Source: Bigelowiella natans CCMP2755
Lineage: Eukaryota; Protista; Cercozoa
NCBI GenBank assembly: GCA_000320545.1
Contig: ADNK01000869.1
Span: 1-53,101, forward strand
Reading direction: 5' to 3'
DNA length: 53,101 nt
In this document: positions 22,208 to 49,346 of the stretch, one piece after another
Layout of the letters: the number at the start of each line of letters is the position of its first letter
Numbering within the stretch: position 1 is the first letter of the stretch
The notes under the pieces: model-generated
Database searches by the model: none
The model's input: only the letters and a program-made list of their open reading frames with translations
What the model was told of the DNA's origin: nothing
Made by a program: the position numbers and the translations under genes

Positions 22208-22859
22208 TCACTTCCCCTTTGCCCTATTTCTCTCTTTCTTTTTCTCCTTATTGTGCTGTCGGTGATGATCTTTACTTTCTTTCACAATCTTCTTTCCTCT
22301 ACGTATAGATAGACAACAAAAATGACGGCATTAGTACGTGGATATATTCACAGGAACTCACTTTTTGTGTTTTTCCTCAATTTTGTTCTCTCCTTCTTAC
22401 GCACTTCTCAGGTTTTGCCGCCTTTGGCTCATTCTTGCTTCCGACTGTGTCAATTTCAAAATCGCCTGAGGGAGGAAGAATAGCGGAAATAAGTTATCTT
22501 CTAAACGTCGTTGCATCTAACCAATTCTTACCAACAAGCCTAGTTACTTCAGTTCTCTTCTCCCCTTTTCACTCCCACCCCCCTCCCCCTTCTCACTTTT
22601 CCTTTTACCGCTAGTTGGCTTCGATAGCCCCTTCATCAGATCGTCATAATTCGCAGGTGGTATTCCTACCTACATATTACATGGCGACAGACAGCAACAT
22701 GAGACCAAACAAACAGGAAAATATCCCGTACGTCATCGTCTTTGTTGCTGTGTGTGTGTGTGTGAGTGTGTGTGTGTGAGTGAGTGTGCTTTTAATTTAA
22801 GCGCGGTTATATCTGGTAAATGTTCCCTTCCAGTAGAAGTCAACATTATCATCAGCTAT

Positions 22860-22898
<39 letters not shown>

Positions 22899-24467
22899 AA
22901 GCGACAACCTCGACGACAAAAAAGTCCGCTGCATCCTTCGTCGTAGCTTTCACTTGTCCGTATCTGAACGATGGCGGTAGCAACGATATACTTATCATTC
23001 TCATTACTCCCAACATAATCAGGCACACCATCAATTATGTGGTAGGCATTATCGATGATAATTACTTCTTGATGACAGAGAGCGCTGAGCCGTATTTACT
23101 GTTAAAGCGGATAACGTAGTCCGTTTCCATACGATACAGCGATAAAGAAGTCTTTTTTACATCGTGGTTACGACGATTATAGGAAGAAGAAGAAGAAGAA
23201 GAAGAAGAAGAAGAAGAAGAATAGGCTGTAAGAGGATGTCTAACGGGGAGGCACAGAGCTTTCTTCTTTTGGTGTTTCATGATAACGCTACTTGGTGTCA
23301 GAAATGTAACAAACTCCATGTGAACAGTTACGACAACGCACGTTCCTATAGTTATTTTGTCGTGATTTCATCACTGTAAATGTCCTTACAATACCTGAAG
23401 TTTTTCTAAGATATCATCGATCTGCGATCTTGCTGGTTTCTCAGAATCGATCTGATAATTGCGGTGAGGATGATTAATTTGGCCGTATCTTTCCTCTTTC
23501 TCTCCTCCTTCATTCAGAGGTTGCTCATTTATCCGCCCTCCTCCACTTCCTCTTCTCTCCCCGTTACATATAACAACCTTTATCTTTGCATCCTTGAAAG
23601 CAATTTCGACCTAATATATTCGTAAAGATTGGTATTGGCACAACGACCAAACTTTCATCGATAAAATTCGTCTTAATCGTTGTGTTAGTATTACTTACTA
23701 GTGCTATTACCAGTAGTACTTACTAGTGCCATATATTACCTGTTCCCGGGCAACCACTGACTTGGTCAGCGTAGAGCGGTAGTTTCGAATGATTTCAGAC
23801 ACGATTTCCTCTGTTTTCTCCTCAATTTTCTTCTTCCGCTCATGTGCAGTAAGGGAAAAGTCGCCTTTCTCCAGAACTTTTTCGCAGCACTTTAGCTGAT
23901 CATTTGTCCTGAAAACAAATTTAAAATGAATTTCAAGAAAAAAGGGGTGGAACCTATGTGGTCTATGAGGAGAATAGAGGAACAGAGGGACAACCACGGA
24001 AAAGGGGGAAGAGGAGGAGAAGGAGGAGGACGAGGAGGACGAGGAGGAGGACAACCCAAAAGCTGCTTGAAGCTCTGCATCGCTGCACTTGGTGAGCTTG
24101 CGCGCATCATTGAAAACTTGCTCGATCTCCAGAGCCTTAAAAATATTAGTTAGTTAGCATGGTCGCAGTAGTCACATCACAAGCTTTTGAAGATCATATT
24201 TGAGGAGGATGAGCGTTTGAATTCAATAAGTAGTGTTTGCTGCTGTCTCTTTTGCTGCTTCACGTACTTCTTCGGCCGATATCTTTCCTTCTTTAAATTG
24301 AGCGGGAGCACCACTTTTGGCCAGAACCTACGTCCGATACACACACGCACACACAACATTATCATCATCATCATTATCATCATCATCTCCTTGTAACTGC
24401 TTCCACGAATATATATCGACTTTTCCTGCAATTCCGACTATTTCTACTACCGCATATATTACACTGT

Positions 24468-24513
<46 letters not shown>

Positions 24514-25018
24514 GCAACTTCTACCACTGCTACCTCGAAGCTCTTCTTGCCTTGTTTCAGCGTGACTATCTGTGCCTGCCCCCCAGAGCTTGAGGAACTA
24601 CCTTTATTGCCCTTTCCGCCCCCACCCTTCCCTTTACCTCCTCGAAGCCGTAGGCTTCGTATCAACAAAGAAGCATCTATACATTTCGAACTAGCGCCTG
24701 CTTATCATTACATACCAAGGAGTATAAGAAAAGGCCAGGGTCTATCGTACTCAGAAACCAGCAAGTAAGTTACTTTCAGCATTTTTTGCATCTCTTCCTC
24801 TCGGCATGTAGCCTAGAAAATGATTGCCCGGCGATTTCCTGCTTCAAAAGTAAAAGGTAAGCCCTCCGCGCGCAAAAAACATTGTCATAGCAATAATTGC
24901 GATATAACCTGAGCGATCGGTGGGAGATGCCGTGGTCATGACCAAAGAGCACAACGACAACGCAGAGTAAGAATACGCTCACTTCTAACAGGAGGATCTT
25001 CGAAGTTGCTGCCTTCAT
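22208..25018 (-). CDS. SBDS/Sdo1-like ribosome maturation factor with signal peptide, LRLRGG-terminated leader and Lys-rich tail
   Basis: IVTLKQGKKSFE|VLAKSG..FKEGK..|ALEIEQVFNDARK..DAELQAAFG|TNDQLKCCEKVLEKGDFSLTAHERKKKIEEK..|..IPPANYDDLMKGLSKPTSG|DFEI covers the SBDS domains. Phase-consistent upstream exons add MKAATSKILLLEVSVFLLCVVVVLFG...SLRLRGG. Tail KGKKIVKESK..KEKKKERNRAKGK*. Confidence 0.85.
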
Positions 25019-25309
25019 TTGGAGGATGTACTGATCGTTCGTTCTGTTCTCAAGGCTACTTTGTAGAAAGTAGAGCAATCCGTGCCCCCATTACCTGTCG
25101 TAAGGTGAGCTCCTCTACAACTTTTCGACACACATTGTTTACTTAGTCGCAGTGTTTCCGATACAGGATATTTCCCTCCTGCGACAAGGTTTTGTCCTAT
25201 GAAATAGTTGTCTCAGACGTGACGTGCTTCTTCCGGATTGTTCTTGACGCCTCCTCCTCGCCTTCCTTCCTCGTCTTGTTAGAGAAACTATCTGTAACAA
25301 GAAGCTGTA

Positions 25310-33369: not shown

Positions 33370-35173
33370 TTATTCCACATCCTCGAGATCGAATATTTCA
33401 CCTTCCTCCTAAAAAGAGAAAACAGTTAAGACTTGCAACTTTTTGGTCCTGCAAATGGCTAAAGGCAATGGCAGGTATATGCAGCGATTGATATATTTCA
33501 AAACTACCTTTTTAGATTCCTTCAACTCCGAAATGTGTTTCTCCTCTTCCGATGTGCTCTTACTACTTGTTGGTACTGGCGATGGAAGTGAAGAAGAGAT
33601 AGCTACTTGTTCTAAAGTAGGGATATCAGCTAAGTCTTCTCCTTCAAGATCATCATCTGAATCGTCGTTATCATGTTGCTGGTTGATGATGCTGTGCACT
33701 TTATCGGTTCCGATTGTGGCATTGGTGCTTGCGGCCTTTTCGTCGAGGTCTTCCTCCTGCGAAACGATACGGATTCAAATGGTGGTTGTGATAGTAGTAG
33801 TAGGATTAAGGAGTAGTAGGATTAAGGAGTAGTAGCAGTAGTAAAAAGAGTGTTAATGGGAAATCATGATTCAGAGGGATTAAAAGAATACGAAGGTATT
33901 GAACAGCGAGAGCATTACTTTCATTTTTCCATCCTCATCGAGACCGTTGCGCTTGCAAAACTTCTCCATGAATTCCTACAAGTAGGTTATTAAAGAAAAG
34001 AGGAGGAGGATTTAACGCCTATGGAATTTTATATCACACACATTTTATGTGAGTGAGTAAATAAGGAACAAATGCAAGAGAGATACCTTATTTCGCCTTT
34101 TTGCTTTCTCCTGCTCCTCGTCCTTAAGTCGCTTGCGCTCAGCCCTCTCTGCCTCTTTCCCACCCTACAAATCCATCGAGGAGAAAGAGGAGGAGTAAGG
34201 ATAGAGAGGGGGGAGCGAAAGAAGAGACGCTGTGAGGATCAGATCTGACACAGAGATATTCTTGTTTCTCCTCCTTATCTTTTTGCTCCTAACACTTACA
34301 ACCTCCCCCCCTTTTTCCAACTTTTGACCTTGGCCCAAGCCTCGGCTATTTTCCTATCGTCTGGGAAGACTGGGCGATCATCTAGGTAAGTAAGTGTCTT
34401 GAATCGTGAAATTACGTGCTTCCGGTAATTCCTCATCTATTGTGTCAAAAAAAGGACAAGAGTGAGCGCATCAATGGATCGAACGGAGAAAGATGACGAG
34501 CGTGCACATGAATGTCGCCAACGCAACCTTTCTAACAAATGGGTTTCCCTTGAGATATAGAACTTTAAGCTTCGGCATTTTCTCGAGGACGTCCAGTGCG
34601 TCTTCATGGCTAAGCTTGTTCTCAGATAAATCCAGCACGGCGAGGTTTGGGCACTCTAAGAGTCCCTGCAATGCCTTTGTCTCCTGAACAAATAATACGA
34701 ATGTCATCAAAATTACACACATTTGTGTGTGTGTTTGTGTGAGGGGGGGGGGGGGGGGAAGGGAGAGAGTCCGTATATGCAACAGACAAAGCCGATTTGT
34801 GTGACAATCCATGAGCTTTGTGAATTGAGAATACCATCGTTATTAATCTTCATCATGGAAAAAATCATTATTACCTTGATATCGTTGTGATGAATGATAA
34901 GAGTATTAAGTTTTTCCATGCCTTCAAGCCCTTCGATCACTTGTATCTTTATGAATTACATATACAGTGACGGTGAAGATTTGTTACTAACTGGAGGATT
35001 GAATTTGGCAGCTTACATAGTTGTGGGAAACATTCAGAGTGTAGAGATTTTTCAGTTTTGAGAGATTGGAGAGCTTCCGAATAAGATTTTCCTGTGGAAT
35101 ATGAGTACAAAGCACGCCCACAACCATGCAGATACACATCGGAGATTAGAGGAGGAGGGATAGCGACACACAC

Positions 35174-46654: not shown

Positions 46655-47800
46655 TCAATTATTTTTGTATGGCTCCGAATTGCCATTCATGTGATTCATG
46701 CTGTAGCCCGAACCGTCAATTGGTACCTGTACATATTGCAACCAAACGAAAGTCACTTTTAAAGTTAATCGATCATTGTGCATTACCATTATCACATCCT
46801 CATCATCATTAGTTGTTATTCTTTCATACACTACTATTATCTAACCGGTGGCTCATTCATTCCTTTGCCTCCCCAGAGCGCTTTTAGCGAACCTCGCGAC
46901 TTAGCTAGCATGAGGACAGGGAGAAGCACACAAGGAACGATGTACAAGAGGGCTGGTTGTCCCATCTTCGTAGCGATGAGGACAATGTCGCATAAAATGA
47001 GGCCAGCAACATAGCCTATCATCGCCACGGAGAAAAAGCCAATCACGGTATTAGTGCGGCGGGAACGGTCAGTGGAGCATGAATCGCCAAACACCCAGTG
47101 ATGGTCCGTTTCATAGTCGAATCTAAGGAGGTGTGAAATGTACAATCCCGGAATAGCAATATCTCCCAGACCAAGGAGCGAGTCTCCAGGAGTAGGATCT
47201 GTCAATCGCGGCATCTTTAACAGCATAGGCATGGCCTCTCCGGAGCTGAATAAGATGATAACGACGACGATGACAACCAATATTAGCAACCCGGCAGTTT
47301 TGGATATTGAACAATTGCTCGAATGCATGCGAACATTAGAATAAGGAGAAAAAAGAAAGAGCTAGTGAAGTGGAAAGAGTAGAGGAAAAGAAAAGAAAAG
47401 GAGATAGATTATTGTCTTGATTGTTCTCCTTCGCCTAATGCTCGTTTATTTTTTCTCCAAAGACTACCTTCCTCCTGTCGCAACTTTGACCATAACGCTT
47501 TGCTGGAAGAAAAAGGGGGACAAGAACACCCAAAAAATGTCGTACAGGAATGCTAAAACTAGCAAAATCCCAGCTACTTTTACGTTCGGAAGCTGTACGG
47601 TCCTCTGAGTAGATAATAAGAGGAATATAATGGAATTACATAACATTGTTCTGGGCTAGGAAACGATAGAAATCGACTGGAGTGCAGACTAAAGCTCAGA
47701 AGAGGTGAAATTCTATAAGTATACTAATTTCCTCATGATTTTACTCAATCGGAGAAATTGGCGATAAATCATCATTGTCTTTGCCAAGCACTGTTTTTTG

Positions 47801-47835
<35 letters not shown>

Positions 47836-49346
47836 GGAGAAACCTGTAAAGTGAGAAGAAAAGCGATGCCAAGAATATCCTGTAGAATCCACGCAAACGA
47901 AGCCTTGCGGTATACACCCCAAAGTACAGCCAGGCCAACCGAGATTACGGTCACAGCAGTGTTCACCCTAATTATAACACAACACAATGTAAGATGATGC
48001 CTCATTTCTAGCGAGTAGACATTTTGGGAACCCATGTTTGAGAACACACAAACACACACACACGCGCGCGCGCGCACAAAACGAAATACCAAGTGATTTT
48101 GCCCAGCTGTGGAAGTTGATAGGATGCAGTGGTGAATGCAGGCGGTAACACAGTCTTTGCGAATGAAGTCAGAGACAAGAAGAGTCCTTGCGCCCCAGCC
48201 AGACAGAAGATGAAAACCAATACGTAGATTAGGTAGTCAATGAAGTAGAAGAGAATCACAAGGCCAAGAGACGCAACCACGATGAAACCCTGAGGATGAA
48301 CACCATCATATTTAGTCATTCAATACAGAACGGAAGATAAGATTAAGAGAATGATGGTAGATAGACAATAGAAAAAATGTACATTATGGTGCATGATAAT
48401 AAAATAATGAGAAAAGAATATACACTCTAGGTTGCAATCAAAATTCTGCGCTATTTTTAGATGATCAACCCATGCGAAGTATTCATTTAGTACGGCCGGT
48501 TCTTCTTCTTCTTCTTCTCCATTTTCAGCATCAATTCTTGCGTAGCGAGCAGATCCATCGCGCTCCCTTGCAGCTGACCAGTATGCACCTCCAGCAACAG
48601 TTCCCACTGATATTGGATACGGAAGACAAAATGAACATAACAACACGCTTATGTTTGCACATTTAAATGCCAATAATTCAAAGGAATGAGGGAAAGGAGG
48701 AGAAAGGAGGAATGAGATAGAGAAATAGACGCCGACCTGCCATTAGAACTAGCACAGCGATTGATGCGTCAAAAAGAGGACGCTCGAAGCGAACGAGCTT
48801 TCCGTACACGGTGTGCTTCTTAAGTGCCTGAACCAAACTTGCTCCTGAAACGCTATCGATCATAACAGCCGGGATGGGTAATCGCTTGCTCCCTGGACTA
48901 GCTCCCATTTCATAGATTTCGGTCGCGTTGTTAACAACAACACATCCTGCAGCACCTGCGCGCTCGGCGAAGGCACACTTTGTACTAAAAGCGCATTCAC
49001 CTCTTCCCATGACCACTATGGCTCCCTTTACACCGCTAATTGGCTTGCATGCTAGGTAAGGCTTAGCAAGAGCAAATCTTCGACCAGCAAGGGTTGAATT
49101 CTTTTTCCCAAAGCTTCCAAACAGTCCAACGAACTGATTCGCTGCAGAGCTAGGTTTCTCAATCTATTTAAGGGAGAGTATGGTAAGACAGCAGAGTGAA
49201 GAGACGGTGTCAAACCAAAGGTTTCGAATGATGTACTTCCCCCCCATCATACTTACTTAGTACTTATTTTCTTTTCATACCTGAACGAATGCATAATCAG
49301 CTGCAACAGCAGTGAAAATTAATGCGTGCAGAAGTCTTGATATCAT
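46655..49346 (-). CDS. Signal peptide peptidase-like aspartyl protease (SPPL2-type) with PA domain
   Basis: Signal peptide MISRLLHALIFTAVAA; PA domain RGECAFSTKCAFAERAGAAGCVVVNN; catalytic FLYDIFWVF and LGLGDIAIPG; GQPALLYIVP. Confidence 0.93.

Follow-up and report, generated by a model that had tools for sequence, protein, structure and literature searches.

Nuclear genes are well known to have been retargeted to the periplastid compartment, which lies between membranes two and three, by means of bipartite leaders, and chlorarachniophyte EFL and histones are nucleus-encoded periplastid proteins that carry such leaders. In the available parts of a 2017 review, the leaders of periplastid proteins 'are somehow then removed', and an unnamed peptidase is posited (PMC5756292). 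The covered portions of two further sources characterize these leaders by the lack of an aromatic residue at position +1 and by charge, not by LRGG (PMC12136025, PMC6105332). According to the portions of its report covered, ASAFind 2.0 reaches 25% sensitivity for periplastid proteins and bases its score on 25 residues surrounding the signal cleavage site (PMC12136025). The LRGG motif described below usually falls beyond those 25 residues.

The protein that carries this motif in the chlorarachniophyte Bigelowiella natans belongs to the SBDS/Sdo1 family, members of which, as far as the partly covered sources go, act, in concert with eIF6, on the large ribosomal subunits of archaea and eukaryotes, SBDS helping to release eIF6. 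The family binds the large subunit, and an EFL1/EF2-type GTPase takes part in the release. A second SBDS-like gene is reportedly known in some protists. Short Gly-Gly motifs are cut by coronavirus PLpro (LxGG), clan CE adenain, ULP/SENP, poxvirus I7L, and ZUFSP/Mug105; such proteases cleave after LxGG, LxGx, or AG and need no ubiquitin fold in the substrate. Most USP/UCH enzymes require a folded ubiquitin domain.

A spliced leader ending in LRLRGG

The window, by which we mean the whole stretch of DNA analysed, comprises 53,101 nt of B. natans CCMP2755 (contig ADNK01000869.1, assembly GCA_000320545.1) and carries on its minus strand the gene Bigna1/71691, which has 13 exons and encodes 363 amino acids. 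A transcriptome-derived protein of 363 residues (P0153) maps exactly onto 13 GT-AG exons and ends with a TGA at 22210-22208. Exon 1 (24909..25018, minus strand, as for all features of this gene) opens with the ATG at 25018 and codes for a predicted signal peptide with a hydrophobic helix at residues ~5-28. Exon 2 (24774..24838) codes for the middle of a transit-peptide-like leader and contains Met48, the sole internal methionine ahead of the SBDS domain, and exon 3 (24534..24697) carries the end of the leader, the motif, a G/K/S-rich stretch, and the first strands of the SBDS N-domain. The three-domain SBDS/Sdo1 core, assigned by Pfam and Foldseek to approximately residues 100-320 (22609..24582, approximate; exons 3-11), is followed in exons 12-13 (22208..22465) by a Lys-rich disordered tail and the stop codon, placed by composition, gene mapping, and the structure model.

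The initial annotation had assembled the leader from three exons on the strength of the letters alone, and this splice model is borne out by contigs from three studies. Both leader joints, which close two GT..AG introns, 70 and 76 nt long, on either side of exon 2, are present in all three contig runs (X1, X5, X14), and the second is also seen in run X19 from a fourth study; transcript joints are listed for 9 of the 12 introns. None of the runs is recorded as RNA, and the contigs are taken as transcripts because they skip GT-AG introns. Their 5' ends (25116, 25127, 25106) lie 88-109 nt upstream of the ATG, so that they cover the 5' untranslated part (25019..25127) and contradict the alternative in which transcripts begin downstream of the signal-peptide exon. 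Coverage in the raw-read run X21 is almost confined to the 3' end and is uninformative for the leader. The JGI model of the gene (P0001) omits exon 2 by way of an acceptor at 24655 (24655-24908) and thereby loses 36 leader residues, yet it retains the signal peptide and the motif in frame; its splice form is absent among the transcript joints listed. The spliced leader with LRLRGG on an SBDS-like gene is real.

Several further features of the region were recorded. A protein with its start inside exon 2 and in another frame (P0154) probably reflects an indel in the assembly and was disregarded. The transcribed 5' part holds an out-of-frame upstream ORF of 11 codons (25091-25056, minus strand), which could influence the choice of start codon between Met1 and Met48. 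A second spliced contig (25225-25400, plus strand, and beyond) starts ~100 nt from the 5' end of the SBDS transcript and diverges from it, suggesting a head-to-head neighbour gene. Elsewhere in the window lie exons of a signal peptide peptidase-like protein with a PA domain (46840-49163, minus strand; PF04258, PF02225) and a leucine-rich repeat exon (34474-34839, minus strand; PF12799), and a Pfam scan that covered 81 of the window's 173 long open frames gave nothing that bears on the SBDS finding.

The leader is 80 residues long and ends in LRLRGG, the last six residues of ubiquitin (71-76). Its hydrophobic N-terminus, pointed out at the start as a signal peptide, was confirmed by a Kyte-Doolittle 11-residue maximum of 3.68 and by a helix at residues 5-28 of the structure model, and on the basis of hydropathy and helix prediction it is predicted to be a signal peptide or a signal anchor. 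The transit-peptide-like stretch comprises 53 disordered residues, with 11 K/R, 4 D/E, and 8 S/T, and is missing from most homologues; residues 29-96 of the structure model mostly have pLDDT <50. The motif was found where it had been placed before the SBDS domains, at residues 75-80 (24636..24653, read from 24653 to 24636), and is the predicted leader-processing site. A search for a ubiquitin fold in the leader found none, either as a Pfam ubiquitin match at E up to 1 or in the structure model. In all six frames of the window, 106,198 residues in total, LRLRGG occurs once; shuffling residues 27-100 produced it in 29 of 200,000 trials, compared with 4,599 of 200,000 for LRGG alone. Queried with residues 1-100, the ESM Atlas returned no usable feature match (TM <0.5).

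Ancestry of the SBDS paralogue

The protein had been called an SBDS-like factor, which holds for its domains and does not hold in the sense of canonical SBDS. The SBDS_N domain (PF01172) scores 61 bits against a cut-off of 24.6 (E 1e-16), domain II (PF09377; 25.2 bits, E 1.6e-5) and the C domain (PF20268; 20.1 bits, E 6e-4) come just below their cut-offs, and Foldseek matches archaeal SBDS at 1.4e-20 over 223 columns. The structure model has pLDDT ~90 over the three-domain core at residues 101-320, with a loose tail, and the three-domain SBDS/Sdo1 architecture is present by Pfam, structure model, and Foldseek alike. A sequence search of the PDB gives 93 bits to archaeal SBDS (30% identity) against 41 bits to human SBDS, and in the tree the protein stands separate from fungal and animal SBDS, with a borderline AU p=0.049. 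By these sequence comparisons, it is an archaeal-like protist SBDS paralogue, of which leaderless members occur in Cyanidioschyzon, Thecamonas, Anaeramoeba, and foraminifera. The Lys-rich tail remarked on in the initial annotation is real, with 14 K and 9 D/E among the final 50 residues, and is a family trait and not diagnostic, because leaderless homologues (P0007, P0011) also carry one. A Lys/Asp-rich C-terminal extension is said to aid retention in chlorarachniophytes.

Trees were built with FastTree and with IQ-TREE, the latter from 45 rows hand-picked from ~290 proteins, core-trimmed, under LG+G4. In the 45-row tree, the chlorarachniophyte and cryptophyte groups stand apart, each fully supported. 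Joining them in one clade was rejected by the AU test (p=0.038), as was a union of chlorarachniophytes with red algae (p=0.027), and a union of chlorarachniophytes with the foraminiferan-containing group was not rejected (p=0.11), all p-values being modest and obtained under a simple model. These results suggest that the leader was acquired twice, separately, on the SBDS paralogue, and they are compatible with an origin of the B. natans gene in the host, from which it possibly came. A metagenome scan with the chlorarachniophyte alignment returned no loci, and the cryptophyte alignment returned three weak ones; at metagenome locus L003, an archaeal-type sdo1 adjoins proteasome- and exosome-like genes.

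The leader-end motif in SBDS relatives and other proteins

Leaders of at least 18 residues are found in nine of 150 representative homologues (50% clustering), and four of the nine carry the motif. All four belong to the chlorarachniophyte clade or to the clade that contains the cryptophyte Baffinella, and the five motif-less long leaders have no strongly hydrophobic N-terminus; among the retrieved homologues, a signal peptide together with the motif occurs only in these chlorarachniophyte and cryptophyte clades. In the orthologue P0003 the motif reads TLRGG and, as in B. natans, KGKGG follows; in that of Amorphochlora, whose N-terminus is hydrophobic, RLRAG stands at the same place and is likewise followed by KGKGG; P0005 is present without its N-terminus. 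Bigelowiella and Amorphochlora keep the motif, while the remainder of their leaders shows poor alignment. In the cryptophyte-like SBDS group, which was found by a search with the cryptophyte pair and includes Baffinella and Rhodomonas, LRGG or LRGA stands shortly before the domain in 11 of 12 N-terminally extended sequences, a count that exceeds the number of independent cases because several rows are near-copies; the remaining sequence has LPRGD. Compared with the tail of ubiquitin itself, the natural variants (RLRAG, LRLRGA, and the one LPRGD) form a looser pattern. The foraminiferan homologue P0007 has a native start with a similar G/K-rich stretch.

The motif is also found in unrelated proteins, for which the counts in Guillardia theta (G. 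theta) come from partial coverage of the ASAFind 2.0 supplements (PMC12136025) together with term searches. In these portions, LRGG stands at the leader end in six of six GFP-localised G. theta periplastid proteins, namely UGGT, EF-1alpha, 14-3-3, RRM1, cyclophilin, and Ubc8, four of which have the full LRLRGG; localisation of the leaders to the periplastid compartment was seen with GFP in a diatom host (PMC12136025). In the covered cryptophyte plastid set of the same source, LRGG occurs in 2 of 101 rows, and neither of them has the Phe that stromal proteins typically show at +1 (PMC12136025). The difference between these partly covered sets gives a Fisher p of 1.5e-8, with a selection bias possible because a single group, in two papers, is the source of all six GFP proteins and may have chosen them with the motif in view. 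Taking MGKEK as what is presumably the start of cytosolic EF-1alpha, the GG of the G. theta leader stands at the position of the start methionine. In the rows covered, GKEK directly follows GG in G. theta EF-1alpha, and the diatom EF-1alpha row starts MPKDK (PMC12136025). In the covered periplastid scoring set, the leader contains LRGG in 7 of 15 G. theta and 2 of 16 T. pseudonana proteins, and the motif-less members are mostly BLAST-inferred or listed as examples, not localised (PMC12136025).

Two rows of the G. theta plastid set (13 and 62 in file 2; FBPase-like and thioredoxin-like) have LRLRGG leaders with no +1 Phe and, as far as this partly covered source goes, may be periplastid proteins filed as stromal (PMC12136025). 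The covered part of the same supplements also holds a signal-peptide-bearing ubiquitin of G. theta in which a diverged ubiquitin-like unit ending in LRVRGG precedes a normal ubiquitin (file 4, row 38; PMC12136025), and this unit is a possible model for the origin of the leader motif. In the part of the PMC6105332 supplement covered, the signal-peptide-bearing Nbp35 of G. theta has IRLRGG, and the B. natans Nbp35 model 80910, possibly the periplastid copy, has ILRGG followed by MM at a short N-terminus. The supplement of PMC6411479 gave no motif match.

Judged from these sequences, cryptophytes offer strong evidence that the motif is general, and chlorarachniophytes thin evidence, consisting of the SBDS paralogue and one Nbp35 model. 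In two lineages with separately arisen plastids, the motif appears to mark the end of the leader in periplastid proteins generally. A full-text literature search found the motif undescribed in algal leaders; Gould 2006, Gile and Keeling 2008, Hirakawa 2009/2010, and Curtis 2012 may already note it, and that its cryptophyte form was remarked on earlier is quite possible, if somewhat short of probable. As far as checked, what is new is a ubiquitin-tail-like leader end common to the B. natans SBDS paralogue and cryptophyte periplastid proteins.

Proposed location, leader removal, and relation to known systems

We propose that the signal peptide would bring the precursor into the ER, that the transit-peptide-like stretch would take it across the second membrane into the periplastid compartment, and that a Gly-Gly-specific protease there would cut after the motif, giving a mature protein that starts at Lys81. 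The freed SBDS would then help to mature nucleomorph 60S subunits by way of eIF6 release, a 60S function that is predicted for the protist paralogue; in the part of the source covered, the Amorphochlora nucleomorph encodes eif6 (PMC4494063). Periplastid targeting, suggested in the initial annotation, gains comparative support from the restriction of leader plus motif, among the retrieved homologues, to two nucleomorph-bearing clades and from the GFP-localised cryptophyte leaders, which together point to a location that we consider likely. As the motif also ends the leaders of periplastid proteins in an unrelated alga, it likely marks a candidate cut site, and cleavage directly after GG is reasonably likely. 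To the mechanism as a whole, from import through the ER to GG cleavage and nucleomorph 60S maturation, we give even chances.

As to the protease, a remnant eukaryotic cytosol could hold ubiquitin-processing enzymes. In the portions of the literature covered, B. natans has a leader-bearing ubiquitin (PMC3542566), the chlorarachniophyte E1 falls in a leader-bearing clade, no SELMA is detectable in chlorarachniophytes, and a search of cryptophytes gave no ptDUP (PMC12412216). A classical deubiquitinase is disfavoured because the leader has no ubiquitin fold, Ala variants occur at either Gly, no ptDUP was detected in cryptophytes, and no SELMA in chlorarachniophytes. The variants LRGG, LRGA-G, and LRAG would fit the looser specificity of a clan CE or PLpro-like enzyme. 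That the cleaving enzyme is of the deubiquitinase or ULP/adenain type is a serious possibility, which we would not yet call probable. In diatoms, the visible part of one dataset contains an N-terminal peptide of T. pseudonana protein 24761 that starts RGG at position 57, with the preceding residue and the location of the protein outside the visible part (PMC3774753); on this partial view, the start might mean a cut before Arg. The broadest form of the proposal, in which leaders that mimic the ubiquitin tail are shed by a DUB/ULP-type protease of the remnant endosymbiont cytosol in cryptophytes, chlorarachniophytes, and some diatoms by convergence between red- and green-derived lineages, is put forward tentatively.

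Other readings of the motif were weighed against this one. The protein may be periplastid and its likeness to ubiquitin incidental, LRLRGG serving instead as a sorting, retention, or receptor motif, or the leader being cut elsewhere, such as ahead of the Arg, by a protease unrelated to deubiquitinases. The variants RLRAG, LRLRGA, and LPRGD, the diatom N-terminus that begins RGG in the partly covered dataset, the leader without a ubiquitin fold, and the many periplastid proteins listed without the motif in the covered supplements would all suit such a role. We nevertheless consider it unlikely, if a reading to be taken seriously, as a cut site fits the place of the motif, which immediately precedes the mature domain both in the two SBDS clades and in six mutually unrelated G. 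theta proteins, and the commonest form of the motif is identical to ubiquitin residues 71-76. That the motif has no role today, being either left over from an earlier ubiquitin fusion or a coincidental match, would be in keeping with the 22 ubiquitin fusion genes of B. natans, some with partial ubiquitin (PMC6332867, in the part covered), and with the appearance of LRGG alone in 2.3% of leader shuffles. This we rate as very improbable, given that the motif is kept between Bigelowiella and Amorphochlora while other leader parts align poorly, that it recurs in the separate cryptophyte clade, and that no ubiquitin homology lies upstream of it; an origin as a relic would in any case be compatible with a present function.

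Two further readings concern where the protein acts. It could function wholly or partly in the host cytosol, either by a start at Met48 or by a membrane anchor that keeps its C-terminus on the cytosolic side, LRLRGG then being exposed to host deubiquitinases, which would release the SBDS part. Other protists keep a leaderless paralogue and no leaderless B. natans copy is among the retrieved homologues, a copy count that is weak because it covers these homologues; Met48 is in frame upstream of the motif, and the short upstream ORF could favour leaky scanning. Against these points, GFP carried by leaders of like type reached the periplastid compartment in all six cases in the covered supplements, and leader and motif together are limited, among the retrieved homologues, to two nucleomorph-bearing clades, so that a cytosolic role seems improbable. 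Delivery by a bipartite leader to the plastid stroma, where the protein would act on 70S ribosomes, draws some support from the net basic leader (11 K/R against 4 D/E), from a Phe near the likely signal cleavage site of the cryptophyte-clade leader P0175, and from the absence, in the portions covered, of a clear +1 discriminator between stromal and periplastid leaders of chlorarachniophytes (PMC6105332). In the partly covered sources, however, SBDS/Sdo1 works together with eIF6 on the large subunits of archaea and eukaryotes and few rows of the cryptophyte plastid set (2/101) contain LRGG, and a stromal destination is in our view quite improbable.

On the preferred reading of a periplastid protein whose leader is cut at the motif, the gene brings one more protein, a factor of late 60S maturation, into the set of likely imports working for nucleomorph ribosomes. 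With a short motif at the leader end, the question of leader removal becomes directly testable and a type of protease is indicated; lists of the periplastid proteome could also gain in precision. If leaders are indeed shed by a DUB/ULP-type enzyme, the missing periplastid leader peptidase would be identified and periplastid proteomes would gain a sequence tag; red- and green-derived lineages would, moreover, have separately sent the same archaeal-like SBDS paralogue to their nucleomorph ribosomes.

How this locus stands to the systems outlined at the beginning can now be stated. With the SBDS/Sdo1 factors of archaea (AF0491, PDB 6fsw/1t95) and humans (2l9n), the B. natans protein has the three-domain fold in common; it differs in its 80-residue leader, predicted signal peptide, and LRLRGG, and its function would be that of the family. 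Ubiquitin fusions such as Ub-eL40, Ub-eS31, and B. natans Ub-actin (PMC6332867, in the part covered) resemble it in having LRLRGG directly before a partner protein, which at this locus is once more related to ribosomes. The B. natans SBDS has a predicted signal peptide and a disordered leader in place of a ubiquitin domain, is absent from the covered fusion table of that source, and, lacking a ubiquitin fold, is not a ubiquitin fusion of that kind. The likeness to the proteases that cut Gly-Gly motifs lies in the motif rules, for a hypothetical counterpart in the periplastid compartment. As far as the partly covered sources go, the B. natans protein resembles in leader design the periplastid proteins of G. 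theta, in which a signal peptide and a stretch that resembles transit peptides likewise precede a housekeeping protein of cytosolic type and the leader likewise ends in LRGG, whereas the plastid lineage of B. natans is green-derived and without detectable SELMA. The same motif in two independently acquired plastids would clearly exemplify convergence in the import of proteins into organelles.
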